Source: Planctomycetota bacterium (lineage in GTDB: Bacteria; Planctomycetota; UBA1135; UBA2386). From it: DNA of 64,000 bases. The position numbers were made by a program, and so were the translations under genes. Positions 42,516-55,499 of the stretch are shown here, piece after piece. Within the stretch, counting starts at the first letter, position 1; each line of letters opens with the position of its first letter. Location: the NCBI GenBank assembly GCA_016794035.1, contig JAEUHS010000044.1, positions 24,169 through 88,168 on the forward strand. The letters are read 5' to 3'. A model generated the notes under the pieces. It was given only the letters and a program-made list of their open reading frames with translations. It did not search any database and was not told the DNA's origin.

Positions 42516-43652
42516 CTACTCGAAGCGGGCCTGGCGCGCGAGGCGCTTGCGGATGATCTCGATGCGCTCCAGCTGGCCGCGCGCCGGGAAGCGTTCGTAG
42601 AAGCCCTCGCGGCGGAAGTCCTGCGTCAGCTCGGCGATCGGCCGGAAGCGGGTCTCGAGCAGCTTCGCCAGTTCGGGTCCCGGTGCGATCGTCGCGTCGA
42701 TGCGCGCGGCGACGTCGCCGCACAGCCGCAGCATGCCCTCGATCGTGACGTCGCGCGTCACCATGTGGTTCTTGTTGTCGCCCCAGGCGCTGCCGAACAC
42801 CGTGCGCAGCGCCTTCAGGGTGTCGCGGATCAGCCCGTAGCCGCGGTCCTTGCTCCAGCCGCGGCCGTCCTTGAAGCGGTGCTGCGCGTCCTTGCGCCGG
42901 ATCAGGCGGTAGGTCTCGCCGAAGATCTGCGCCTGGTTGATCCACATCTCCTGCGCCGACCGGCCGCCGAGCATGTTGATGTGGTACTGCAGCGGCGAGT
43001 CGTCGGACTCGTACAGCGAACGCACCAGCGTCGCGGCGTACTTCTTCTCGGGGTCGGTGCCCCACTCGATGCGTTCGTACAGGTCGATCAGGTGCGACTT
43101 GTTGATGCGCGTGTGGGTGCTGTTGATGACGACGAACATCTCGGTCGCGAAGTCCGACGTCTTGCCGTCGAACACGACCACCGGCACTTCGACGCGGCGG
43201 TCGGCGTCCTTCTCCTGCAGGTAGAAGTGCAGGCCGGCGAGCCGGTGCTGGCCGTCGATGATCAGGAAGTCGCCGCGCGGTTCGACCAGGTTGCCGGCGC
43301 GCTCCATGCCGCGCATCGGCTGGAACTCGAGCTTCTCCGGCGTGAACAGCAGCACCGCGCCCGGGATCACCGGCTGCCGCGTCTCGTTGCGGTAGAAGTC
43401 CTTGATCTGCTTGACCTTCCTGCGGTTCAGGTCGCGCTGGAACGACTTGCTGTTCTTCTCGATCGCCTGCACGTAGCGCTCGACGTCGTCCGGCTCCTGC
43501 TTCCGCTTCGCCTTGCCGTCGTCGCCGCCGATGGTCTGCCCGCGGTCGCCGTAGAAGCGCGTCACGAAGCGCACCTTGCGCAGCAGGTCTTCCGCCGGGT
43601 AGCTGACGAAGTAGAACTCCGACTCCTTCTGCCGCATGCGCTGGGCGAACAT
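42516..43652 (-). CDS. DGQHR-domain protein (DndB/DpdB-like, ParB-nuclease superfamily)
   Basis: Literal motif IIDGQHRLAG (DGQHR encoded at 43242-43256). IPGAVLLF lies upstream and VINSTHTRINKSHLIDL downstream. Start at ATG 43652. The remaining 450 codons of the 828-aa ORF are a shadow of the opposite-strand gene. Confidence 0.8.
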   Translation of the reverse strand: MFAQRMRQKESEFYFVSYPAEDLLRKVRFVTRFYGDRGQTIGGDDGKAKRKQEPDDVERYVQAIEKNSKSFQRDLNRRKVKQIKDFYRNETRQPVIPGAVLLFTPEKLEFQPMRGMERAGNLVEPRGDFLIIDGQHRLAGLHFYLQEKDADRRVEVPVVVFDGKTSDFATEMFVVINSTHTRINKSHLIDLYERIEWGTDPEKKYAATLVRSLYESDDSPLQYHINMLGGRSAQEMWINQAQIFGETYRLIRRKDAQHRFKDGRGWSKDRGYGLIRDTLKALRTVFGSAWGDNKNHMVTRDVTIEGMLRLCGDVAARIDATIAPGPELAKLLETRFRPIAELTQDFRREGFYERFPARGQLERIEIIRKRLARQARFE

Positions 43653-43784
43653 CCGTGCTCCTTGGACCGGGTGTAGGTGCTGGGCGAGAGTTTGCTCGCC
43701 GGCGGCCGGGTTGGCAAAGGTCGGGCGGGGTTCCGTGTCGCCGGGGCTGGCACCGCCGATGCCGTCGGCACTACGGTGCCACCG

Positions 43785-45044
43785 ATGTCGCCGCTGACCG
43801 TCGTCTGGGCCTACCGCCGCACGGGGAAGTTCGCCTTCCACGTGCTGACCGGGGCGCTGGAGACCGATGCTCGGGCGGCCGGCGTGCCGATCGTGTTCGC
43901 CAACGGCGTCGAGGCGGTGGTCGCGGCGCTGCGCGAGGCGCTGGCGGCCGGGCATCGCGTGCTGGTCGGCTGGTCGTTCTATTCGCCGGACTTCGCGCTG
44001 CTCGCGGCGGAGCTGCAGCAGGTGAAGGCACGGATCGACGCTGCGCGCGTGCTGCACGTCGCCGGCGGCGTGCACGCGTCGGCCGAGCCCGAGGCGACGC
44101 TGCGCGCCGGCTTCGACCTGGTCGCGACCGGCGACGGCGAACGGCTGGTGCAGGACCTCGTGCACGCGCTGCGCACCGGCGGCGAGCCGCGCGCGATCGC
44201 CGGCATCGGCTGGCTCGAGGCCGGCGTCCTGCGGCGCAACGGCCGCGCGGCGCGCACCGCGCTCGACGAGTTCCCGCCGTTCGGCCCCGCGCACGACCGC
44301 TTCGGCCCGATCGAGATCACGCGCGGCTGCGTCTACGCGTGCCGGTTCTGCCAGACGCCGTACTTCGCCGGCGCCAGCTTCCGGCACCGCAGCGTCGCCA
44401 ACGTGCGGCATTGGGCGCGCTACCTGGTCGGCCGCGGCTTCCGGGACTTCCGCTTCCTGACGCCGACGTCGATGAGCTACGGCGCGACCGGGCCGGAGCC
44501 GGATCTCGCCGCGGTCGAGGCGCTGCTGGCCGCGGTGCGCGAGGAGATCGGACCGCAGCGGCGGTTGTGGTTCGGCACGTTCCCGAGCGAGGTGCGGCCC
44601 GAACACGTCACCGACGCGAGCCTTCGGCTGCTGCGGCGGTGGGTCACCAACAAGGCGCTGATCCTCGGCGGCCAGTCCGGCAGCGACCGCGTGCTGGCGG
44701 CGAGCGCGCGCGGTCACGATGCGGCGACCGTCGAGCGCGCGACCGCGCTGTGTCTCGAGTACGGCTTCGTGCCGCACGTCGACTTCCTGTTCGGCATGCC
44801 CGGCGAAGCGCCCGCCGATGTCGAGGCGACGCTGGCGCTGATGGACCGCCTGGTCGCGCGCGGCGCCAAGGTGCACGGTCACACGTTCCTGCCGTTGCCC
44901 GGCACGCCGTTCCGCAAGGCCGCACCCGGCGTGCTGACGCCCGCGATGCGCCAGCGGCTGCTGGCGATGGCGTCGAAGGGGCAGCTGTACGGGCAGTGGC
45001 AACAGCAGGAGGTCACCGCGCGCGAGCTGGCGGAGCGGCGCTGA
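43785..45044 (+). CDS. Radical SAM enzyme with an N-terminal B12-binding-like domain
   Basis: CVYACRFC (C-x3-C-x2-C) after a Rossmann-like N-domain. Overall resemblance to the archaeal MJ_1487-type B12/rSAM family. Start at ATG 43785 (an alternative GTG is at 43677). Confidence 0.75.
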   Translation: MSPLTVVWAYRRTGKFAFHVLTGALETDARAAGVPIVFANGVEAVVAALREALAAGHRVLVGWSFYSPDFALLAAELQQVKARIDAARVLHVAGGVHASAEPEATLRAGFDLVATGDGERLVQDLVHALRTGGEPRAIAGIGWLEAGVLRRNGRAARTALDEFPPFGPAHDRFGPIEITRGCVYACRFCQTPYFAGASFRHRSVANVRHWARYLVGRGFRDFRFLTPTSMSYGATGPEPDLAAVEALLAAVREEIGPQRRLWFGTFPSEVRPEHVTDASLRLLRRWVTNKALILGGQSGSDRVLAASARGHDAATVERATALCLEYGFVPHVDFLFGMPGEAPADVEATLALMDRLVARGAKVHGHTFLPLPGTPFRKAAPGVLTPAMRQRLLAMASKGQLYGQWQQQEVTARELAERR

Positions 45045-45153: not shown

Positions 45154-45324
45154 GTGATCCTCGCCGGACTGGTCGGTTGGTCGCTGCAGCATTTCGCCGG
45201 TGTCGCCGGCGCGATCCTGCCGGCCGTGCTGCTCGGCATGTTCGTGGCCATGCTGGTGCCGGCCAGGGGAGCCTGCGCGGTGCGCGGTCCTGCGGTCAGG
45301 GCGGACACGCCGGACGGCCGATAG
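45154..45324 (+). CDS. 56-aa hydrophobic micro-protein (tentative)
   Basis: Not in the ORF track. The frame ITVVILAGLVGWSLQHFAGVAGAILPAVLLGMFVAMLVPA has strong GC3 and two TM-like stretches. It ends 7 nt before the selenoprotein gene. The start codon is uncertain. Confidence 0.3.
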   Translation: MILAGLVGWSLQHFAGVAGAILPAVLLGMFVAMLVPARGACAVRGPAVRADTPDGR

Positions 45325-45330
45325 CACGAC

Positions 45331-45570
45331 ATGGACATCACGATCGTTCACTGCACGTCTTGAGGCTTCGGCCCACGCGCGGCGGGTCTCGCCGCGCAGA
45401 TCGAAGATGCGCTCGACCTCGAGGTGAAGCGCAAGACCGGGCGGCTCGGCCAGTTCGACGTGCTCGTCGACGGGCAGGTGATCGCCAGCCGCAGCGCTCG
45501 CGGGTGGCCCGATGCCGAAGCGGTGATCGCCAGCATCGAGGCCCTGCAGGCGCAGAAGCAGCGCAGTTGA
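45331..45570 (+). CDS. SelW/Rdx-family selenoprotein; TGA at 45361-45363 read as selenocysteine
   Basis: Reads MDITIVHCTS-U-GFGPRAAGLAAQIEDALDLEVKRKTGRLGQFDVLVDGQVIASRSARGWPDAEAVIASIEAL.... This has the CxxU redox motif, the G-x-G-x-F-x-V-x-VDG core and the (R/G)(F/W)P motif of Rdx proteins. GC3 continues across the TGA. Confidence 0.75.
45377..45397 (+). promoter_or_regulatory. SECIS-like hairpin
   Basis: Perfect 8-bp stem GCGCGGCG/CGCCGCGC with loop GGUCU, starting 14 nt after the UGA. The loop resembles the GGUC apical loop of the E. coli fdhF SECIS. Confidence 0.6.
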
Positions 45571-45584
45571 CGCCGCGCGGCGCT

Positions 45585-46553
45585 TCAGCCGTTCTCGGCG
45601 CGGCGCAGGCGGTTCTCGTTCTTGGGGTCGGTCGGGTCGTGGTAGACGAGGCCACCGTTGATGCGCTCGACGACGGGCTTGCGGGTCTTGTCGCGGTAGT
45701 GCCGCGTGTACGTCTGCGGCACCGAGTAGTGCGTGACGTACGACTTGCGCGTCAGGGATCGGTCGAGCACCGGCGAACCGCCGTGGGCGAGCGCGGCGTG
45801 CCAGAGGAACACGTCACCCTTCTTCGGGCAGAACGTCAGTCGTTCGAGGCCGGCCTCCCGGCAGTGCCGGTCGATGTGCTCGGCGAACTGCTGTTCGGTC
45901 GCCGTCGAGCCCGACTGGCGGAAGATGCCGTTGCCCCAGTCGAACATCGGCAGCGCGTGCGAACCCGGCACATAGGTGAGCGGCCCCGCGCGCGGATCGA
46001 TGTCCTCGAGCGCGACCCAGGAAGCGCACAGGTGCGCCGGGTTGCCCGAGAACACGTAGGCGTGGTCCTGATGGAGCAGCTGCTGACTGCCCTCGAGGAA
46101 GGTCAGCGACTGCATCATCACGACGTCGTTGGCGAAGAGATGGCGAACGAAGTCGACGATCTGCGCGTGCAGCGAGATCCGCTTGGCCGCGACCGAGGCG
46201 TGATGCAGGTCGACGAAGCGCATACGCTGGCCGAAGAAGAACTGCGGGTCGGCGGTGCGGATCGGCACGTGGTCGTACTTGTCGCTGAGGATCAGCGAGC
46301 TGTGGTCGCGGTGGTTGGCCATCACTTCGTCGATGTCGGCGAGCAGCGCGTCGATCAGCGCCGGCTCGATCGCCCGCTCCAGCACGACGTAGCCGAGCCC
46401 CATCCACTGGAACAACCGCTGCCGCAACCGCGCCCGCTCCGCGACGTCGATCGGCTGCGCCCGCACGTGGTCTTCGATCGCGTAGCGCAGCTCGTCGACC
46501 CAGGGCAGTCGCTTGCGGCGGAAATCGAGCTGTTGGGGTCCGCGGGCGAACAT
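45585..46553 (-). CDS. Fe(II)/2-oxoglutarate dioxygenase, phytanoyl-CoA dioxygenase (PhyH) family
   Basis: HQDHAY (H-x-D), a later PGSH, and WHAALAHGG. The start could be ATG 46553 or 46598. Confidence 0.7.
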   Translation of the reverse strand: MFARGPQQLDFRRKRLPWVDELRYAIEDHVRAQPIDVAERARLRQRLFQWMGLGYVVLERAIEPALIDALLADIDEVMANHRDHSSLILSDKYDHVPIRTADPQFFFGQRMRFVDLHHASVAAKRISLHAQIVDFVRHLFANDVVMMQSLTFLEGSQQLLHQDHAYVFSGNPAHLCASWVALEDIDPRAGPLTYVPGSHALPMFDWGNGIFRQSGSTATEQQFAEHIDRHCREAGLERLTFCPKKGDVFLWHAALAHGGSPVLDRSLTRKSYVTHYSVPQTYTRHYRDKTRKPVVERINGGLVYHDPTDPKNENRLRRAENG

Positions 46554-46619
46554 GGTGGCTGCGCGCGGCCAAGCATCATGGAGCGCGGTCGGCGCCACAA
46601 GCCCGAGGCGCGTGGCGGA

Positions 46620-46928
46620 TCAGCCGGCGGCCGGCGTCGCCGCGATCCACTGCCGCACGTGGCGGTCGAGCAGGAACGGCCAGATCGGCACCAGCGACGC
46701 CACGAACACCAGCAGCAGCCGCCGCACCGGCCAGCCGCGGTCGAAGTACGCCTTCACCAGCAGCCACACCAGCACCAGGAACAACACGCCGTGCACCATG
46801 CCGAACACGCGCACGGCCAGCGGCTCGCCCCAGACGTACTTCAGCGGCATCGCGATGCCGAGCAGCACCAGGTAGGAGACCGCCTCGATCAGCGAGGCGC
46901 GGCGCAACCAGGGCAGGGGATCGTCCAT
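46620..46928 (-). CDS. Small membrane protein, DUF3817-like
   Basis: LIEAVSYLVLLGIAMPLKY...HGVLFLVLVW pattern. 102 aa from ATG 46928. Confidence 0.6.
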   Translation of the reverse strand: MDDPLPWLRRASLIEAVSYLVLLGIAMPLKYVWGEPLAVRVFGMVHGVLFLVLVWLLVKAYFDRGWPVRRLLLVFVASLVPIWPFLLDRHVRQWIAATPAAG

Positions 46929-47068
46929 GGGGGCCCGCACGATCGCCGGGACGGGGTCCGCAGGCCAGGGCCTCGCTGCCACCGAAGCGGTCGCGATCCG
47001 GTTACCATCGGCGGTCGCCACCCGGGAACCTGCGCCGGCCGGCGCCGTCGATGCGCCGCTTTTGCCCC

Positions 47069-48031
47069 ATGACCATCTTCGATCGCCGTCGGTTCTTCTC
47101 CGCTGCCATGGCCGCCGCCGGCTTCACCGCGACCCGATCCTGGTGCACCGCGTGGTTTCTGCCGCAGGACCCCGATGGAACGGCGCGCGAACGACAGCTG
47201 CGCGCGGCGGTCGCGAAGGCCAGGGCCGAGGGCAAGCCGCTGCTGGTGTTCGTGGTGCCCGGCGATGGCACCGGCGAGGACCGGGCGGCGCAGAACGAAG
47301 CGGCGCTGCGCGGCCGCTGGTTCGGCGCGTTCCTGAACCACGGCGGGTCGCGGGCGCTGACGGAGCTGGCGCTGTGCGTGCCCGCCTGCGGCCGCATCGA
47401 CGAGGTGCGGCGGGTGACCGGGGCGAAGGCGATCGACGGTGCACCCCTGCTGCTGCTCGTCGATGCGACCGGCATCGGCGTCGAGGATGCGGCGCCGCCG
47501 AAGGTCACGCGGTTGGATCTGGACCTCGGCAGCCCGTTCGGGCAACACGGACGCTCGGAGGACTACGACCCGGCGGCGGACGAGCGCCGTGTCGAAGCGG
47601 GCATCGAGAAGCTGACCAAGGGCCTGCACCAGATCGTGCACCAGCACGGCGACAGCATGGCCGCGATGGCGGCCGCGGTCACGTCGCGCCTGTCGCCGGC
47701 GCAGGCGCAGACCCTGGCGGCGTGGTTCGGCGGCGGCGCGGCGCCGCCGGACGAACTGCTGGTCCGTTGCGCGGCCGAGGTGCGTCGCGCGATCGCCGAC
47801 CAGACGGACGAGCGGCGCGCCGCGCTGCAGCAGTCGCTGGTCGACGCGGTCGAACGCGAGATCGTGCACAAGCCGGTGCCGGGCGCGCGTTGGTACACCT
47901 CGGGCGGTTGCGGTTCGGAACCGGAGGAGAAGACGGCCGAGGAGAAGCAGAACGGCCGCATGATCGCCTGCGGCATGGGCATGGTGCCCACGCACTGCGA
48001 ACGGTTCCTGCAGTTGTTCACCGGGCAGTGA
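47069..48031 (+). CDS. Tat-signal protein, paralogue 1, with a C-terminal GCG-x18-CGMG-x-VP-x2-C module (candidate MNIO substrate)
   Basis: N-terminus MTIFDRRRFFSAAMAAAG. The C-terminus is PGARWYTSGGCGSEPEEKTAEEKQNGRMIACGMGMVPTHCERFLQLFTGQ. Paralogous to the next gene. Confidence 0.7.
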   Translation: MTIFDRRRFFSAAMAAAGFTATRSWCTAWFLPQDPDGTARERQLRAAVAKARAEGKPLLVFVVPGDGTGEDRAAQNEAALRGRWFGAFLNHGGSRALTELALCVPACGRIDEVRRVTGAKAIDGAPLLLLVDATGIGVEDAAPPKVTRLDLDLGSPFGQHGRSEDYDPAADERRVEAGIEKLTKGLHQIVHQHGDSMAAMAAAVTSRLSPAQAQTLAAWFGGGAAPPDELLVRCAAEVRRAIADQTDERRAALQQSLVDAVEREIVHKPVPGARWYTSGGCGSEPEEKTAEEKQNGRMIACGMGMVPTHCERFLQLFTGQ

Positions 48032-48047
48032 GCCGGAGACGCGCAGC

Positions 48048-48959
48048 ATGACGAACATCGATCGGCGCACCTGGTTCTCCTCGGCGGTCGCGGCGGCGGC
48101 GTTGACCGCCGTGCCCGATTGGCTGACGTTCTTCGCGCGCGACCGCCAGGATCCGAAGCCGCCGGCCACGCCCGGGCTGCGCGCGCGGCAGCTGCGCGCG
48201 GCCGCGGCGCAGGCGAAGGCCCAGGGCAGGCCGCTGCTGGCGTTCGTCGTGCCCGACGACGAGGCCGCCGCGTTCGCGCGCGGCCAATGGCTCGGCGCCT
48301 GGCTGATGCACGGCGGCGCCAGCGCCCGGCTCGATCTCGCCCTGTGTGTGCCGGCCGCGGCCAGCGCGGCGGAGCTCCGCGCGCTCGCACGGGTGCCGCT
48401 GCCGGACCCGGCGCCGGCGATGGTGCTGCTCGATGCGACCCTGCTCGACGACCCGGACGGGTTGGGCCTGAAGGCCACGCCGATCGAGGTCGACCTGCCG
48501 GCGGCGAGTCCGCCGGATCGTCCCGCGGACCTCGAGCGCCTGACGACGGCGCTGGCGGCGGCGTTGCCGCGGCACGCGGGCGCGCTCGACGCGATGGGGC
48601 AGCGCGTACGTGCGTCGCTTAGCGACGAGGCAGCGGACCGCGTGCTCGCCTGGCTCACGAGCAGCCGGAAGCTCGATGACGAGCTGCTGGTGCGCGCCAC
48701 GGCCTGGGTGCGCTGCACGCTGCCGAGCATGAAGGCCGAACGCGCGCGCACCGCGCAGGCGATGCTGCTGGCGGCGATCGAACGCGTGTGGATGCAGCGG
48801 CCGTTGCCCGGTGCGAGGTGGGGGCGAACCGAAGGCTGCGGCGTCGAGATCGAGGACCCCGAGGCGCCGGGCGGCGTGATCGGCGCCGGCGTCGAATGCG
48901 GCATGGGCCGGGTGCCCGAGGTCTGCCGGCGCTTCCTGGTGTTCTACACCGGGTCCTGA
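48048..48959 (+). CDS. Tat-signal protein, paralogue 2, with the same C-terminal Cys module
   Basis: GGAG RBS. N-terminus MTNIDRRTWFSSAVAAAA. The C-terminus is PGARWGRTEGCGVEIEDPEAPGGVIGAGVECGMGRVPEVCRRFLVFYTGS. Its stop abuts the next ATG. Confidence 0.7.
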   Translation: MTNIDRRTWFSSAVAAAALTAVPDWLTFFARDRQDPKPPATPGLRARQLRAAAAQAKAQGRPLLAFVVPDDEAAAFARGQWLGAWLMHGGASARLDLALCVPAAASAAELRALARVPLPDPAPAMVLLDATLLDDPDGLGLKATPIEVDLPAASPPDRPADLERLTTALAAALPRHAGALDAMGQRVRASLSDEAADRVLAWLTSSRKLDDELLVRATAWVRCTLPSMKAERARTAQAMLLAAIERVWMQRPLPGARWGRTEGCGVEIEDPEAPGGVIGAGVECGMGRVPEVCRRFLVFYTGS

Positions 48960-49838
48960 ATGACGGCGCGCGTCGGGTTCTCGCTGCAGCCGGACACCGA
49001 GTTCCTCGGCCTGCTCGAGCCGGTGCTGCGCGACGCCGACTACTTCGAGATCACGCCCGAGACGACGTGGCGCCGCGGCGGCGACGGCGGCTGGGTGCCC
49101 AACGGTTTCCACCGCGAGTTCCGGCGGCTCGGCGACGAACTGCACACGCCGTTCGTCGGCCACGCCGTGCACGGCAGCTTCGGCACCGCCGATCCGCGCG
49201 ATCGCGAACGCCAGGCGGCGTGGCAGCAGCGCATCGCCGCCGACCACGCGGTGTTCGACTTCCAGTGGTTCACCGACCACCTCGGCGCCGCGGTGCTGGA
49301 CCAACGCGCGCTGACCCTGCCGATCGCGCTGCCGATGCACGACGCCATGGCGCAGATCGTGCGCGAGCGGCTGGTGGCGCTGCAGCAGGTGGTGCCCGAC
49401 GTCGGCGTCGAGAACAGCGTGTTCTACTTCCTGCTCGGCGACTGGCTCGACGAGCCGGACTTCCTCGCACGCGTGCTGGCCGCGCCGCGCACGCACCTGC
49501 TGCTGGACCTGCACAACGTGTGGACGATGGCGCAGAACGTCGGTGCCGATGCGCAGGCGTGGCTCGACCGCCTCGACTGCTCGCGCGTGATCGAGATCCA
49601 CCTGTCCGGCGGCGAACGCAGCCAACCCGGCTGGCTGCCCGACGGTCGCACGCTGCGCCTCGACAGCCACGACCACGCCGTGCCCGACGAGGTCTGGGCG
49701 CTGTTCGAAGAGGTGCTGCCGCGCTGCACGAACCTGCGCGGTGTCACGCTCGAACGCATGGAGGGCAGCGTCGCGGCCGGCGACGTGTCGCAGGTGCAGG
49801 CCGAACTGCGTCGCATCCGCGAGGTGCTACGTGGCTGA
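48960..49838 (+). CDS. DUF692 / multinuclear non-haem iron oxidative enzyme (MNIO, MbnB/HvfB/BufB-like)
   Basis: TIM-barrel landmarks YFEITPE, HAVHGSFG, FTDHLG, VENSVFY, LLDLHN, EIHLSGG and DSHDHAVPDEVW. Confidence 0.75.
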   Translation: MTARVGFSLQPDTEFLGLLEPVLRDADYFEITPETTWRRGGDGGWVPNGFHREFRRLGDELHTPFVGHAVHGSFGTADPRDRERQAAWQQRIAADHAVFDFQWFTDHLGAAVLDQRALTLPIALPMHDAMAQIVRERLVALQQVVPDVGVENSVFYFLLGDWLDEPDFLARVLAAPRTHLLLDLHNVWTMAQNVGADAQAWLDRLDCSRVIEIHLSGGERSQPGWLPDGRTLRLDSHDHAVPDEVWALFEEVLPRCTNLRGVTLERMEGSVAAGDVSQVQAELRRIREVLRG

Positions 49839-50181
49839 TGTCGACGACCTCGTGCGCCAGCAGGCGCTGCTCGCCGACCTGCTGACGGCGCCGGATCCGG
49901 TCGCCGCGCTGCGCGAACGCCTGGCCGTCTCGCACGCGGATCCGACGCTGCGCGCGATCGACGAAGACGGCCTGCGCATTGCCGCGCTGCTGGTCGTCAA
50001 GCTGCGCTTCCAACGCCTGACCAACGGCTCGCGCCTGGCGAACGAGTGGTTCGAGCGCGATGCGCGCGGGTTCACCGACGCGTTTCGCGCCTATCACCGG
50101 GACGTGCCGCCGACGGCGCTCGATCCGTGGCGTGAGGCGGCGTCGTTTCACCAGTGGTGCACGGCTCGCGAGGAGTCTTGA
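49831..50181 (+). CDS. Short (116-aa) putative MNIO partner protein (DUF2063/MbnC-like?), possibly truncated
   Basis: The GTG start overlaps the MNIO stop by 8 nt. GC3 is high. Its position matches the partner slot of MNIO operons. Similarity to the DUF2063 N-domain is judged only loosely by eye. Confidence 0.4.
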   Translation: MADVDDLVRQQALLADLLTAPDPVAALRERLAVSHADPTLRAIDEDGLRIAALLVVKLRFQRLTNGSRLANEWFERDARGFTDAFRAYHRDVPPTALDPWREAASFHQWCTAREES

Positions 50182-50234
50182 GCCGTGCTCCTCGACGAGG
50201 CTGATGCCGTCACTCATGGATCAGCTTGACAATT

Positions 50235-50246
50235 GGGGGGGGGGGG
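50235..50246 (+). repeat. G12 homopolymer tract
   Basis: Twelve consecutive G. A TTGACA hexamer (50226-50231) lies 3 nt upstream, and TATG (ATG 50248) follows immediately. It sits at the high-GC/lower-GC junction. Confidence 0.95.
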
Positions 50247-50247
50247 T

Positions 50248-50724
50248 ATGCTGCTGCGGATGAAGGGACGACTCGCGGCGTTGACTCTCGCAGTCCTCAC
50301 GTCGGCTGGTATCCGGGCGCAGGAATGCCCGCCCGTGCCCCTGTATCAGGTCTTCGGCCCGTGGCCACCTGGCTACCCTGATACCAGCAACACCTTCTGG
50401 CTGCCCGGCCCGTCGGTGCCGGGAAACTGCCCGAACGAGCCATGTCGGTTCTACGCATGGATCCACGTCGAGATCTACACTCCGAGCCCGACAGGACCCG
50501 ATGTTACCGTCCAAGTGTGCCAGCGAACCAACACTTCCTTCGCATGCGGTCCTTTCCCGATTCCGCACGACGCGTCCCTGCCCGCATGGACCCAGATGGC
50601 GGAGGGCGACCTCAAGTGGGAGATCGCATGCGGAGAGTTCCTCCAGCAGGAACTCCAGATGGATACCCCGATCGGCTTCCTGACGTTCATTCAGGTGTCG
50701 CTCACATGCAGAACCTGCATCTGA
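50248..50724 (+). CDS. Secreted 8-Cys small protein, unknown function
   Basis: Signal peptide MLLRMKGRLAALTLAVLTSAGIRAQE. Eight Cys, including two ACG. Codon usage is visibly less GC3-biased than the flanks. Confidence 0.55.
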   Translation: MLLRMKGRLAALTLAVLTSAGIRAQECPPVPLYQVFGPWPPGYPDTSNTFWLPGPSVPGNCPNEPCRFYAWIHVEIYTPSPTGPDVTVQVCQRTNTSFACGPFPIPHDASLPAWTQMAEGDLKWEIACGEFLQQELQMDTPIGFLTFIQVSLTCRTCI

Positions 50725-50751
50725 GTTGATTGCTCCCGACCGCTTCTCCAC

Positions 50752-51564
50752 ATGAAAGGGCGATCGCTAGTAGCAGTCGGCTTGCTGCTTGCCGTGGCAG
50801 CGGTCACGCTTCTGATTGCCTTGAGGGCCCCTGGCGAATCACCAATCACGCCCTCGATTGGTTCTGCGGAGCCAGAGCGCCCTGCGCCCCCAAGCCAGGG
50901 TCTGGCCGGTTCGTCGGCCGACATACCAAGAGCCACGAGAGAGCCCTTTGCCGTCTTTGCGCCAACGGCAGCTGCACCAAACCTCACGTATGAAGGGTTC
51001 CTGCTTCAGTTCGTGTCGCGCGCCCTTCCTGACGATGCCAAGTCGAGCCTGTCGTCCGGAGAGCCTTCCGCGGACATGATGGCAGGCAACAAGAGCATCA
51101 ACCCGGGTCGCAAGCAGCTCGACGCCGAGCAAGCGGTTCGTCTAGAGAAAATGCTGAACGCACAGGCGGTCGAGGAGCAGGCGCTCCAGAGAGAGGACCG
51201 CCGCCTGTCGCGAGAGGCGCTCGTCCGTGCCATCGAGCGCGGCCAATTCGTCGCCAAGGAGCAGCCCGAGCTCACGGCAACCGACCCCGATCAGATGATG
51301 TTGGAGATTCGCCGGGCGCGTGAACGTTCTTCGCAAGACCAGAAGGCAACCATGGAAGCGCTGACGGCGCGCCTGGGAGAGCCGATGAAGGACTGGGCGT
51401 ATTCGCTCCAGACCACGCGAGAGCCGGACGGTGTGCCGCGCCAGACCGTGATCTGGTTTACGCGGGCTGCGGACCCGCAGGTCTTCGAGGTCCGCGATCG
51501 CCTTTCCGAGTTGCGGCGCCAGCAACGCGAAGACCTCAAGCAGTTCTTCGCGCGTCTGCCGTGA
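50752..51564 (+). CDS. N-terminally anchored Pro-rich/coiled-coil protein, unknown function
   Basis: TM helix LVAVGLLLAVAAVTLLIAL, then a charged helical region. Lower-GC codon usage. Confidence 0.5.
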   Translation: MKGRSLVAVGLLLAVAAVTLLIALRAPGESPITPSIGSAEPERPAPPSQGLAGSSADIPRATREPFAVFAPTAAAPNLTYEGFLLQFVSRALPDDAKSSLSSGEPSADMMAGNKSINPGRKQLDAEQAVRLEKMLNAQAVEEQALQREDRRLSREALVRAIERGQFVAKEQPELTATDPDQMMLEIRRARERSSQDQKATMEALTARLGEPMKDWAYSLQTTREPDGVPRQTVIWFTRAADPQVFEVRDRLSELRRQQREDLKQFFARLP

Positions 51565-51567
51565 CGT

Positions 51568-51903
51568 CTACACGCTGAACTTGAAGTGCAGCACGTCGCC
51601 GTCCTGGACGACGTATTCCTTGCCCTCGATGCGATACAGCCCCTTCTCGCGCGCCGCTGCGACGCTGCCGCACTTGACCAGGTCCGCGTAGGCGACGGTC
51701 TCGGCCTTGATGAAGCCGCGTTCGAAGTCGCTGTGGCTCACGCCCGCGGCCTTCGGCGCCGTGTCGCCCTGGTGGATCGTCCAGGCGCGCACTTCTTTCT
51801 CGCCGGCGGTGAAGTAGGTGCGCAGGCCGAGCAGGTGGTAGGTCGCCTTGATCAGCGCGCCGACGCCGGACTCCTGCACGCCGAGATTGTGCACCTGTTG
51901 CAA
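51568..51903 (-). pseudogene. Detached 3' fragment of ychF (C-terminal roughly 105 codons only)
   Basis: Encodes ...[57 protein letters not shown]...HFKFSV. This is near-identical to the C-terminus of the intact ychF at 54393. It lacks the G domain. Confidence 0.85.
51572..51885. repeat. Direct repeat copy A (314 bp, ychF 3' end)
   Basis: Aligns colinearly with 54397-54710. I count about 11 mismatches by eye. Almost all are synonymous third-position changes, and one gives Ile to Ser. Confidence 0.9.
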
Positions 51904-51988
51904 GAGCGGGTTGCGGTTGGCGGTCGGGAGTTCAGACCGTCATCGCTGTTGTGGCGGTGACGCGGGGGCTTGACACCAACTCAGCGGC

Positions 51989-52636
51989 ATGTCGATGATC
52001 CCGATCTGGTTGGAGGAAGATGTGACGAGCCCCGAGCCCCGAGCTGGCCAGGCCTTGTGGCTGGATGTGACACTCATCCAGCCCATCGTTGCAGAGGCAG
52101 CGGCGAGAGTGGCGCGTGATGCCACAGATCGTGACGACCTAATCCAGGAGGTCAATCTGAGCCTCCTGAGCCGGCCTGTACACACGGAAGCGCTGAAGAA
52201 CGTTCGCGCCTACGTCATCCGAATGGTGAGGAACCGGCACCTGAACGACGCAGCTGCCCGTGCGCGCCGGGGCCGAGAGGTGGCCTACGACACGGATTTG
52301 CTCCCTGCATCAGATCGAGACCCACGTACGGAAACCACGGAGGGGATCGACCGCGTCCTGGCAGCGCTTGGGCCGCGTGAGGCCCAGGTTCTTCAGGCAT
52401 GGCTGTGCGACCCGGTCATCAAGTCGGTTGCCCGAGCGCTTTATCTGGACGTCCGGCAGGTAAAGCGCTCGCTCGCAAGGTGTGCCCATACCGTGATGCA
52501 GTTCATCCGATGTTGCGATTCTTGTCCCCCTGCCTTGTCTCTGGATGGTGAGGTTGTCGTCCGACAGCCATCTGCTCGTCAATGCCATCCAGGAGATGGA
52601 AAGGAAGGAACAGCATGCCAAGCCGAGCTTCCCTAG
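51989..52636 (+). CDS. ECF-like sigma factor (divergent)
   Basis: Region-2-like DDLIQEVNLSLL ... VRAYVIRMVRNRHLND, and region-4-like LGPREAQVLQAWL...SVARALYLDVRQVKRSLARC. The start is uncertain. Confidence 0.55.
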   Translation: MSMIPIWLEEDVTSPEPRAGQALWLDVTLIQPIVAEAAARVARDATDRDDLIQEVNLSLLSRPVHTEALKNVRAYVIRMVRNRHLNDAAARARRGREVAYDTDLLPASDRDPRTETTEGIDRVLAALGPREAQVLQAWLCDPVIKSVARALYLDVRQVKRSLARCAHTVMQFIRCCDSCPPALSLDGEVVVRQPSARQCHPGDGKEGTACQAELP

Positions 52637-52965
52637 TGGCGGGACTCTTGGTCCCCTCTCTCTTGATGGGCGCGGTGTTCGCCCAACAGCACTCCAGCCA
52701 GGACTACACGAACTTACAGTGGGTCACCGCTGTGAAGGGAATCAAAACGGGGAGCGCCGTGACATCGTCGACCTACGACTCTGTTGACTACTGGGTTATC
52801 TGGCGCGATGGGCAGTATCTCTTGCGCGTGCGCAAGGACGACCCATCGCTCAGCCAGGGCGAATCGGATCTGCTCAAGCAAGCGCAAGACAACAACGAAG
52901 GAGTAGACGTCGAGATTGGCGATGACAACGGTCCCGTCGTAGATGGCGTCACCATTCGTCCATGA
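52615..52965 (+). CDS. Small secreted protein, unknown function
   Basis: AGGAAGG RBS before ATG 52615. Signal peptide MPSRASLVAGLLVPSLLMGAVFAQQ. Confidence 0.55.
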   Translation: MPSRASLVAGLLVPSLLMGAVFAQQHSSQDYTNLQWVTAVKGIKTGSAVTSSTYDSVDYWVIWRDGQYLLRVRKDDPSLSQGESDLLKQAQDNNEGVDVEIGDDNGPVVDGVTIRP

Positions 52966-54350
52966 ACTCTCCGTCAGCCGTTGCGTCGGCGTTGCTGGTC
53001 CTGAGCTTGGCTGGGCTCGGGATTTGGTACCTGCTTTCGAGCGATGGGCTGTCCGTGCCGGTGGGCCCCGAGGCGACGCCCATTCCATCGGATCCCGCCA
53101 CCCGCGAGGACGCAGCGGTTGTTCCGGTGCGGACCGCGGCCAGTCAGATTGCCGCATTGAACCCCAACGATGGTGCACCGAGTGTGAGTGTGCGCGTCTT
53201 GGACGTGGACCGGCACGACCCGGTAGCTGGCGTTGCCGTGCGCATCGAGGCCGAAGGTAGGCACTGCAACGCGATGACCGATTTCGATGGGTGGTGCGAA
53301 CTGGCATGGCCTGCACCTTCCGAGTCGGCGCAGTTGTCAGCAAGCTCCGACGATGGCTTGGTCCTGGACACCCCGCGACGAATCACCCGCGGTGATCGGC
53401 TCTGCAACTTGGCCTTTGCGCGAACGATCACGCTGTTCGGGGTGGTGCGCGATTCGCGTGGTGGGGGAGTGGCACACGCCCGGGTCTACCTAGCTGTGCC
53501 AAGACTGGAGAATTCCGGGAAGGCCCGGCTGGAGTCGAGTCTCCTAGCGCACGCCGACGCGGCAGGTCTGTACCGAGTGCAGCTGCGGCACGGTTGGCCA
53601 GCTGGCTCCCACCTGGTTGCTGTGGCCCGTCCATATGCTCCTGCCGTGGGTAGTCTATCCAACATCCAAGCCAGCACTACGCAGGTCGACCTGCAGTTCG
53701 CCGAGGGCTCGATCTTGCGAGTCCGTGTGCTGGATGAAGGTGGCCAAGGCGTTCCTCGCTGCAGGCTGAGAGTGATGACCGCGAGTTCCCCACTGCTCAG
53801 CGAATGGACGCCGGATGAGGTCCCGGAGGGCGCTGGCGGCGACCTGGGGCTCGTATCGCAACTGGTGGAAACCGACGAGACTGGGACCGCCACGGTTGCC
53901 GACTGGCCGGTGGGCCGCGATGCGATGGTACGAGTCTTCAACGAGCGGAATCGTCGTTTTTGCGTTATCGAAGCACCGGGAGTCGTCAGGGAGTCCGGTC
54001 GCCCCACGACGATTGCAGCGAACGAAGCTTCGAACGCGCAGATTCGCGTACGGGTCGAGACTCGGACGGCCGTGCAAGTCACGGGTCACTTGGAGGGCTT
54101 CTCGATGGGTGAGGCCGCACGACTCATTGTCACCCGGATCGGCGGCGACGGCGGGAACGAGATCGGGAGCATGCGTCTGTCGGAGGCCGGTGCCTTCGAG
54201 GCTCAGTTCAGCCAGTGGAGACGTGATCAAGGAGGGAGTTTCAAGCTCACGCTCCAGGCGGCGATGCGGGGGGGCGATTGGCAGCAAGAACTGGGGACCT
54301 ACGAAATTCACGGCGACCCGGTGCTGTCGGGAGTGATCATCCGCAGGTAG
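52962..54350 (+). CDS. N-terminally anchored protein with CarboxypepD_reg-like modules
   Basis: ATGA overlap with the upstream gene. TM helix ALLVLSLAGLGIWYLL. Modules such as VRVLDVDRHDPVAGVAVRIE, GVVRDSRGGGVAHARVYL and VRVLDEGGQGVPRCRLRV. Confidence 0.6.
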   Translation: MNSPSAVASALLVLSLAGLGIWYLLSSDGLSVPVGPEATPIPSDPATREDAAVVPVRTAASQIAALNPNDGAPSVSVRVLDVDRHDPVAGVAVRIEAEGRHCNAMTDFDGWCELAWPAPSESAQLSASSDDGLVLDTPRRITRGDRLCNLAFARTITLFGVVRDSRGGGVAHARVYLAVPRLENSGKARLESSLLAHADAAGLYRVQLRHGWPAGSHLVAVARPYAPAVGSLSNIQASTTQVDLQFAEGSILRVRVLDEGGQGVPRCRLRVMTASSPLLSEWTPDEVPEGAGGDLGLVSQLVETDETGTATVADWPVGRDAMVRVFNERNRRFCVIEAPGVVRESGRPTTIAANEASNAQIRVRVETRTAVQVTGHLEGFSMGEAARLIVTRIGGDGGNEIGSMRLSEAGAFEAQFSQWRRDQGGSFKLTLQAAMRGGDWQQELGTYEIHGDPVLSGVIIRR

Positions 54351-54392
54351 CGGGGTAGCCCGCAACCCGAGGGCCGGGAGACGGTCACCGGC

Positions 54393-55499
54393 TCAGACGC
54401 TGAACTTGAAGTGCAGCACGTCGCCGTCCTGCACGACGTATTCCTTGCCCTCGATGCGATACAGCCCCTTCTCGCGCGCCGCTGCGACGCTGCCGCACTT
54501 GACCAGGTCCGCGTAGGCGACGGTCTCGGCCTTGATGAAGCCGCGTTCGAAGTCGCTGTGGATCACACCGGCGGCCTTCGGCGCGGTGTCGCCCTGGTGG
54601 ATCGTCCAGGCGCGCACCTCCTTCTCGCCAGCCGTGAAGTAGGTGCGCAGGCCGAGCAGATGGTAGGTCGCCTTGATCAGCGCACCGACGCCGGACTCCT
54701 GCACGCCGAGGTCGGCGAGGAACGCCTTCGCGTCGTCGGGCTCGAGGTCGACCAGGTCGCTCTCGATCTGCGCCGAGATCACCGTGGCCTCGCAGTTGAG
54801 GTGGGTCTTGGCGTAGTCGCGCACCTTCTGCACGTAGGGGTTGCCGTCGGCGGTCGCGAGGTCGCTGTCCTTGACGTTGCAGGCGAAGATCACCGGCTTG
54901 TCGGTCAGCAGATAGAACATGCGCGCGATCGCCTTCTCCTCGGCGGTCAGGTCCGTCAGCATCGCCGGTTTGCCGGCGTTCAGCACCGGCAGGATCTTCT
55001 GCAGCACCGGGATCTCGGCGATCGCCTCCTTGTCGCCGCGCTTGGCCTGCTTGGTCTGTCGATCGATGCGCTTCTCGACCGACTCGAGGTCGGCGAGCAC
55101 CAGTTCGGTCGTGATGATCTCGATGTCGCGCACCGGATCGACCGTGCCCGACACGTGGTGGATGTCGACGTCCTCGAAGCAGCGCACCACCTGCACGATC
55201 GCGTCGACCTCGCGGATGTGGCTCAGGAACTTGTTGCCGAGCCCTTCGCCGGTCGCGGCGCCCTTGACCAGGCCGGCGATGTCGACGAACTCGATCGCCG
55301 CCGGGATCACGACGTTGGTCTTGGCGATCTTCTGCAGCACGTACAGCCGTTCGTCCGGAACGGTGACGACGCCGACGTTCGGATCGATGGTGCAGAACGG
55401 GTAGTTGGCGGCCTGCGCCTTCTGCGTGCGGGTGACGGCGTTGAACAGCGTCGACTTGCCGACGTTGGGCAGACCGACGATGCCGGCTTTCAGCGTCAC
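54393..55499 (-). CDS. ychF: Ribosome-binding ATPase YchF
   Basis: GTG start with GTGA overlap on the etfA stop. [20 protein letters not shown]-loop and the C-terminal TGS-like HFKFSV. Confidence 0.92.
54397..54710. repeat. Direct repeat copy B (314 bp, part of intact ychF)
   Basis: See copy A. Similarity ends abruptly after ...CACGCCGAG in both copies. Confidence 0.9.

Follow-up and report, generated by a model that had tools for sequence, protein, structure and literature searches.

Enzymes of the MNIO (DUF692) family, which are multinuclear-iron oxidases, are among the fastest-growing families of post-translational modification enzymes, and nearly all of their characterised substrates are short peptides, or peptides and repeat proteins exported by the Sec route. 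Can such an enzyme also mature proteins of about 30 kDa that would leave the cytoplasm by way of twin-arginine translocation (Tat), a pathway that exports folded proteins? The question is raised by four genes in a 64,000-nucleotide stretch of Planctomycetota DNA (contig JAEUHS010000044.1, positions 24,169 to 88,168; hereafter the window), of which genes 1 and 2 encode paralogous proteins with a C-terminal Cys-Gly module, gene 3 an MNIO enzyme and gene 4 a small protein. We find that genes 1 and 2 define a large family of what are likely enzyme-modified exported proteins, one that carries no annotation and has not been described before, and that the four genes very probably work together. On balance we favour a reading in which the MNIO and its partner act on two Cys-Gly sites, oxidising them in the cytoplasm ahead of export by Tat. 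If this is true, MNIO chemistry extends to the maturation of folded proteins, and a new periplasmic metal-binding or redox protein family is added together with a new type of partner protein. The ordering of modification before export, an issue raised for the Sec-dependent bufferins (PMC12452194), would then be explained naturally by Tat. The family occurs in cultured, genetically studied myxobacteria of the genera Sorangium, Sandaracinus, Chondromyces and Minicystis.

A four-gene cassette and its distribution

The four genes lie on the same strand. Read directly, the junctions show genes 1 and 2 separated by 16 nt, the TGA of gene 2 abutting the ATG of gene 3, and gene 4 overlapping the end of gene 3 by 8 nt, so that both coordinates and packing are as an earlier note on this DNA had given them (Table 1). 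A second in-frame start for gene 1 is present at ATG 47051, and the orthologues, which begin at the MT.. position, back the start at 47069. The products of genes 1 and 2 are 39% identical over their full length (E 5e-46), which bears out the same note's description of them as paralogues. They are the only copies of their family in the whole window, which likewise holds one MNIO gene. The nearest named genome is a Planctomycetota metagenome-assembled genome (MAG), in which the counterpart of gene 2 is 64% identical and that of the MNIO 83%, and a gene 1 orthologue, 61% identical, occupies the same position in a Planctomycetota MAG.

A word-indexed homology search with gene 2 alone returned eight relatives, and the impression of a very rare family that this gave did not survive an exhaustive profile search. 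With a profile of the paralogues run against 1.84 billion representatives, 849 clusters of proteins (50% identity) were found at E up to 1e-3, of which 643 reach 1e-10 or better and 205 reach 1e-30 or better. The family is found mostly in Polyangia myxobacteria (Sorangium, Sandaracinus, Minicystis) and in Planctomycetota, and the cultured carriers recovered by a second search are Sandaracinus amylolyticus, Minicystis rosea and Sorangium strains. Every named match is annotated as "hypothetical protein" and none carries a precomputed Pfam domain; when 41 diverse members were compared with Pfam-A and NCBIfam, no models matched except those for Tat signals. Throughout, the counts given for the family's twin arginines, C-terminal module and cysteine spacing refer to 255 retrieved members, and invariant columns refer to the 41 diverse ones.

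The association with the MNIO gene extends well beyond the window. In reference genomes, eight loci encode a relative, and in all of them one to four family copies in tandem lie immediately upstream of an MNIO orthologue, whose identity to gene 3 is 41-83% and which is followed by a homologue of gene 4. Their sources are a Planctomycetota MAG, members of the Sandaracinaceae, several Myxococcota or "delta" MAGs and a single MAG with the label Alphaproteobacteria. Among 45 metagenome loci, 39 have enough downstream sequence, and in 35 of these the MNIO follows immediately. The complete genome of Sandaracinus amylolyticus has the arrangement 288 aa, 299 aa, MNIO and 115 aa, and that of Minicystis rosea 233 aa, 237 aa, MNIO and 118 aa. 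The co-occurrence with DUF692 on which the earlier note's proposal hung is thus found in genomes and metagenomes alike, and the gene arrangement is not due to chance. Since the flanking genes are unrelated between loci, the cassette is self-contained.

The upstream gene also varies in copy number, from one to four in tandem, as is typical of precursor genes. In one lineage the tandem paralogues have collapsed into a single chimeric gene (metagenome locus L004, 8001-8897; product P0003), of which residues 1-66 are 88% identical to gene 1 and 64% to gene 2, and residues 67-298 are 81% identical to gene 2 and 39% to gene 1; from this pattern of identity we deduce unequal recombination between tandem copies.

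Export signal, C-terminal module and predicted fold

Both window proteins carry DRR-x-(F/W)-F at the N-terminus (DRRRFFSAAMAAAG and DRRTWFSSAVAAAA), which had been read as twin-arginine-type signals. At the family level that reading becomes stronger: two adjacent arginines fall within the first 35 residues in 245 of the 255 members, 235 match RR-x-[F/L-like]-[L/F-like], and the consensus M-(D/K/N)-RR-x-F(0.70)-L(0.73)-x-A-A-A has the form of a textbook twin-arginine motif. An AxA-like site is present in 208 of the 245 members with the arginine pair. Hidden Markov models for Tat signals match some of the diverse members, PF10518 (Pfam TAT_signal) in 6/41 and TIGR01409 in 3/41, both at E up to 0.01, and PF10399 in 2/41. 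In a minority (9/245, P0045, P0095, P0099, P0126, P0131 and P0137 among them) the twin-arginine motif is followed by a lipobox-like L-x-x-C, which suggests Tat-exported lipoprotein variants of the same protein.

At the other end, both window proteins close with GCG...CGMG-x-VP-x2-C-x-RFL, and the corresponding family module, W-x3-5-GCG...CGMG(H)VP...RFL, is present in 247 of the 255 members. Glycine follows the first cysteine in 232 of these 247 and the second in all of them, CGMGH is found in 143, and the two cysteines are separated by a median of 16 residues (range 14-52). In gene 2 numbering, R6, R7, P69, W258, C264, C284, G285, R295 and F296 are invariant and G263, G265, E269, M286, P290 and L297 nearly so. 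Of the three C-terminal cysteines that the earlier note had listed in the module, two are invariant; the third (VC293RRF) is Cys in only 25/247 and Ser in 180, and by this alignment it is a feature of the window's clade and not of the family. C100, in LALC, is likewise not universal, and four members have only two cysteines in total. The shared blocks LALCVPA and DELLVR, also singled out at first, are indeed common to genes 1 and 2, but they are clade-specific rather than family-wide. A sub-clade of four metagenome loci (L041, L051, L054, L058) has a highly charged insert of about 35 residues between the two cysteines, with both Cys-Gly motifs kept.

An AlphaFold2 model of gene 2 rose in confidence from a predicted local distance difference test (pLDDT) of 71 with a 9-sequence alignment to 89.2 with the 41 diverse sequences (predicted template-modelling score 0.83). 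It begins with a signal region that is disordered or helical (residues 1-40), continues with a beta-alpha-beta domain (44-146) and a bundle of helices (159-249), and ends in a four-stranded sheet (256-299), where a hairpin turn holds C264 and the loop after it C284; in the module the pLDDT is about 88-93 (residues 251-280 and 291-300). A Foldseek search of both AlphaFold models against the PDB gave nothing significant. The putative substrate is thus modelled as a real globular protein, with an overall fold that has no significant PDB match, and not as a floppy peptide. Export by Tat rather than Sec fits this picture, because the putative substrate is predicted confidently to be folded.

A thioredoxin-like N-terminal domain was also considered. 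The best structural matches, to AGR2 and thioredoxins, have E values of at least 0.5 and template-modelling scores of about 0.45, a weak lead, and genes 1 and 2 show neither a Pfam thioredoxin match nor a CxxC at the expected position; the candidate was set aside.

Enzyme, partner and proposed maturation

Gene 3 matches PF05114 (MbnB_TglH_ChrH) with 121.2 bits against a cutoff of 25, over profile positions 19-262 of 263, and so is a true DUF692 enzyme, as first proposed from its motifs, and no generic xylose-isomerase-like TIM barrel. Its nearest solved structure by sequence is TglH (8HCI, E 1.6e-13), whose iron ligands are H71, H107, E151, D184, N187, H216, D229, H231 and E258 (PMC10880893). 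The gene 3 equivalents H68, H107, E151, D183, N186, H214, D235, H237 and E265 are at least 97% conserved among 31 orthologues; eight of them align directly with TglH, and the correspondence of H68 to TglH H71, which lies outside the pairwise alignment, is deduced from the motif. Gene 3 falls under every NCBIfam equivalog cutoff, with scores of 114 against 600 for ChrH, 95 against 310 for BufB, 92 against 360 for HvfB, 59 against 400 for ApyH and 28 against 325 for MbnB, and judged by these scores it is a distinct MNIO subfamily.

Gene 4 has the motif DG-x-R-x-x-ALLV-x-(R/K)LRF-x-R...F..F(R/K).(Y/F)H and 642 homologues; all that are named are called "hypothetical", and among the 120 listed none has a name or a Pfam domain. 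In the loci examined, every contig that reaches far enough has a homologue downstream of the MNIO. In seven of 25 loci (L008, L010, L012, L013, L014, L023 and L030) an in-frame fusion places the partner at the C-terminal end of the MNIO, and these fusions are strong evidence that gene 4 and the enzyme are physical partners. The MNIO product of the 8-Mb contig L063 (8900-10171) is 423 aa, which by its length would accommodate a fused partner; a different radical SAM/SPASM gene follows directly after it there. An assignment of gene 4 to DUF2063, which the earlier note had in mind, does not hold: gene 4 has no PF09836 match, the one hit among 17 homologues (E 0.3) is not significant, and the protein belongs to an unannotated family of its own. 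Searched against PDB sequences at E up to 10, a profile of the partner found neither 3DEE (NGO1945) nor 8HI7 (TglI), and neither these sequences nor Pfam yielded any significant match to it.

Taken together, these observations point to a self-contained maturation cassette. Genes 1 and 2 would give globular pre-proteins of about 30 kDa with Tat signal peptides, and in the cytoplasm the MNIO and its small partner would carry out an O2-dependent oxidation of C264 and C284 of gene 2, and of C281 and C301 of gene 1, in the C-terminal module; the finished, folded protein would then be exported by Tat. Since the N-terminal sequences of the MNIO and of the partner show no evident signal peptide and the upstream proteins have Tat signals, cytoplasmic modification followed by Tat export is the simplest reading. 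That genes 1 and 2 are the substrates is probable. The likeliest products, as with other Cys-directed MNIOs, would be sulfur heterocycles of the oxazolone/thioamide or 5-thiooxazole type, a conversion of the cysteines that we regard as a serious possibility falling a little short of the probable. Outside the cytoplasm the two modified sites would probably serve as a metal-binding, plausibly copper-binding, or redox-active centre, with metal binding as such, to copper or another metal, a tentative and somewhat unlikely assignment. The gene anatomy, the MNIO family membership of gene 3 with its conserved iron ligands, the Tat motif, the invariant Cys-Gly pair, the near-obligate synteny and the partner fusions are observed; we infer substrate status, the cysteines as targets, the chemistry of the product and its final function.

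Several results weigh against this favoured reading. The C-terminal module is modelled within a folded beta-sheet, which would require the enzyme to work on turns that are exposed or on a chain not yet folded. The short models PF10518 and TIGR01409, which are insensitive, match neither gene 1 nor gene 2 itself at E values up to 1, and the two proteins show no clear signal-peptidase site. No similarity of the partner to DUF2063, TglI or MbnC can be detected by sequence, and no RRE-type domain was detected. Because gene 3 lies below all equivalog cutoffs, its chemistry cannot be transferred from a characterised enzyme, and known MNIOs also act on Asp, aromatic residues and homocitrulline. No metal-related gene is conserved nearby. 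Finally, the four loci with the charged insert have no adjacent MNIO within the 1-4 kb of downstream sequence available, which makes them exceptions at about 10% (4/39) of the metagenome loci. They may be orphan copies served in trans, as is known of stand-alone bufferin genes, or may be a sign that the module can function unmodified.

A more specific proposal is that the MNIO installs a protein-derived cofactor, namely paired sulfur heterocycles forming a metal or redox centre, in a folded protein of about 30 kDa whose fold has no solved relative, that Tat is used because the cofactor must be built in the cytoplasm on a protein that folds afterwards, and that the partner, in some lineages fused to the enzyme, recognises the substrate, possibly by its signal peptide or C-terminal RFL motif, and couples this to its release into export. 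The role of the partner is drawn here by analogy with Tat proofreading chaperones, and we consider the proposal as a whole unlikely. If true, it would describe the first MNIO maturase of a true folded protein, as opposed to a peptide or a repeat scaffold, and a Tat substrate class defined by a post-translational heterocycle.

It is less likely still, though worth weighing, that the MNIO and partner modify these Tat proteins by some other chemistry, for example at W258, E269, the backbone or the C-terminus, or by beta-carbon excision or cross-linking at Cys, and that the cysteine pair is a native metal or disulfide site. The best, weak equivalog match of gene 3 is to ChrH, a rearrangement catalyst and not an oxazolone former; MNIO reactions are diverse (ortho-Tyr formation, aminopyruvate, homocitrulline hydroxylation); W258, R295, F296, E269 and P290 are further invariant or near-invariant residues of the module; and CGMGH, as found in 143/247 members, consists of classical soft-metal ligands that could bind metal unmodified. 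Against this, it is the glycines flanking the cysteines (G-C-G, C-G) that are kept more strictly than the Met or His, and the two window proteins themselves have Arg or Met in place of the His.

We think it quite improbable that the proteins of about 300 aa are accessory or downstream parts, such as a periplasmic receptor or carrier, with the MNIO acting on another, unrecognised peptide. Their status as substrates does rest on position and conserved cysteines only, the proteins are large and confidently folded, and the assignment of precursors to unknown ORFs (open reading frames) without distinctive features has been called hazardous (PMC12452194). Yet across phyla the cassette has no other conserved gene around it, and since the intergenic spaces are 16, 0 and -8 nt there is no space for a hidden small precursor; small upstream ORFs of the Planctomycetota clade are absent from the myxobacterial loci, and the gene that precedes the MNIO shows precursor-like variation in copy number. 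Most improbable of all is that these are long precursors of a small secreted peptide made by ribosomes and modified after translation (a RiPP), with the modified C-terminal residues, about 50, cleaved off and the N-terminal 250 or so a giant leader, for although the cysteine module stands at the very C-terminal end, where many RiPPs have their core, the cassette has no conserved protease or peptide exporter, the module is integrated in the predicted fold with high pLDDT, and the N-terminal and helical domains are conserved themselves (P69 invariant; G60, P62, L63, L64, G79 and G83 near-invariant).

Genomic setting and relation to known systems

The genes upstream of the cassette (Table 1) are syntenic with it only in the Planctomycetota-like clade; the DndB-like gene and the B12-binding radical SAM gene are kept in metagenome loci L001 and L004 and absent from the myxobacterial loci. 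A scan of 46.5-50.8 kb for promoters and terminators gave nothing above expectation, and the window showed no Rfam match and no detected tRNAs.

Table 1. Coordinates of the cassette, its motifs and neighbouring features in the window
Feature	Position	Strand	Basis
Gene 1, 320 aa, putative MNIO substrate A	47069..48031	+	ORF; matches family profile
Twin-arginine motif of gene 1, R6 R7 R8 in MTIFDRRRFF	47084..47092	+	R6, R7 invariant in 41 diverse members
C-terminal module of gene 1, PGARW...GC281G...AC301GMGMVP..C310ERFL	47879..48028	+	Alignments; C281 and C301 are invariant columns
Gene 2, 303 aa, paralogue, putative MNIO substrate B	48048..48959	+	ORF; homologues; AlphaFold2 model
Twin-arginine motif of gene 2, R6 R7 in MTNIDRRTWF	48063..48068	+	Family conservation
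C-terminal module of gene 2, PGARW258...GC264G..E269...EC284G285MGRVP290..C293RR295F296L297	48807..48956	+	Invariant columns
Cysteine codon C264 of gene 2	48837-48839	+	
Cysteine codon C284 of gene 2	48897-48899	+	
Gene 3, MNIO (DUF692) enzyme, 292 aa	48960..49838	+	PF05114
Gene 4, 116-aa putative MNIO partner of a new family, GTG start 49831	49831..50181	+	Conserved position; fusions
DndB-like	within 42516-43700	-	
B12-binding radical SAM	43677-45044	+	
56-aa membrane peptide	45154-45324	+	
SelW-like ORF with in-frame TGA	about 45334-45570	+	
PhyH-family dioxygenase	45585-46598	-	
DUF3817	46620-47021	-	
YchF GTPase, 111-aa C-terminal ORF	51568-51903	-	
ECF sigma-factor gene	51989-52636	+	

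Small upstream ORFs of 56 aa in related loci were considered as the true precursors and rejected: one is the C-terminal half of a SelW/Rdx-like protein, the other a hydrophobic membrane peptide, and neither is found in the myxobacterial loci. The SelW/Rdx-like ORF has an in-frame TGA in a C-T-S-U redox motif ('DITIVHCTS*GFGPRAAGLAAQIEDAL...GQFDVLVDGQVIASR'), conserved in metagenome locus L004 (6936-7196), and is likely, on this pattern, an unannotated selenoprotein. A hairpin rich in GC (GCGCGGCG-GGUCU-CGCCGCGC), which begins some 17 nt past the UGA, could be a bacterial selenocysteine insertion sequence; its fold z-score of -0.3 is not significant, and no tRNA-Sec is present within the window. 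Downstream of gene 4, over 50200-54400, the GC content falls from about 0.72 to 0.63-0.64, and the YchF GTPase of the window is reduced to a C-terminal ORF that adjoins the gene for an extracytoplasmic function (ECF) sigma factor. In L004 ychF is intact (368 aa), and the region may be a foreign insertion that disrupts ychF.

How new is the cassette? The statement of the earlier note that genes 1 and 2 match no known class of MNIO substrate stands in so far as no described family fits, be it Buf1, Buf2, Buf_EGKCG, CxxxxC, adjamnio-1/2/3/7/I-VI or TIGR04222, but large exported substrates of up to 506 residues are known, which limits it. The text of a published survey of the MNIO landscape makes no mention of Tat, Myxococcota or Planctomycetota, and its supplements hold bufferin co-occurrence tables only, with nothing on the family described here (PMC12452194). 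Within the literature that could be searched, full-text searching found nothing relevant that joins MNIO or DUF692 with Tat or with myxobacterial genera. In the survey, the search for precursors with signal peptides was limited to proteins of fewer than 200 residues with Sec signals (PMC12452194), and because of these limits it would have missed the family of genes 1 and 2. Large exported MNIO substrates and partners outside DUF2063 are both documented, so that systems of this general kind are already known.

The closest parallel in layout is that of the bufferins (BufA/BufB/BufC; Buf1 with DUF2282, Buf2 with BUF_6/12Cys), which share the order of substrate, MNIO and partner, conserved cysteines as presumed targets and a self-contained cassette (PMC11626156, PMC12452194). 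They differ in that Sec signals are described for them, in contrast to the Tat motifs of the family studied here, and in that their partner is a DUF2063-RRE fusion (PME-type 1), whereas the partner here is a protein of about 116 aa from a new family, sometimes fused to the MNIO. Gene 3 stays below the BufB cutoff (95 bits against 310), and no DUF2282 or Buf2 signature was found in genes 1 and 2 or in the 41 members, the presence of a Buf2 model in the libraries being assumed.

The oxazolins (HvfA/HvfB/HvfC, Buf_EGKCG) provide a second comparison, since there too an MNIO acts on Cys-Gly sites of an exported protein (PMC11252979, PMC12452194), and their precursors, 31-506 residues long, are a precedent for MNIO substrates of protein size (PMC12452194). 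Oxazolins, however, have repeated EGKCG motifs in a beta-helix or unstructured context, Sec signals and DUF2063 partners, in contrast to the two-site module and the predicted globular multi-domain architecture without repeats described here: sequences of the family contain no EGKCG repeats, each having one GCG and one CGMG site. The enzyme again remains under the relevant cutoff (92 against 360 for HvfB).

With respect to the enzyme and the size of the partner, the nearest relative is the TglH-TglI pair of the pearlin/3-thiaglutamate pathway, which has the same set of iron ligands as gene 3 and a partner that is likewise small, helical-looking, outside DUF2063 and about 115 residues long (PMC10880893, PMC12452194). 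TglI nevertheless shows no detectable sequence similarity to gene 4, and TglA, a 50-residue cytoplasmic scaffold without a signal peptide, is unlike the products of genes 1 and 2. Partners of PME-type 2, which resemble DUF2063 in structure but lack its Pfam signature, have been reported to go with precursors lacking signal peptides, and gene 4 fits the published description of that type by size and position (PMC12452194). The cassette would contradict this correlation, with the reservation that the fit of gene 4 is one of size and position only.

Outside the MNIO field, the nearest comparison lies among Tat substrates that contain cofactors. TorA and DmsA are cofactor-containing proteins served by the cytoplasmic maturation and proofreading factors TorD and DmsD, and there a pre-made cofactor is inserted; no homology to TorD-family chaperones was found, and none was sought. 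The logic of maturation in the cytoplasm followed by passage through Tat would be the same in the cassette described here, with the difference that what we propose is the oxidation of the protein's own residues.

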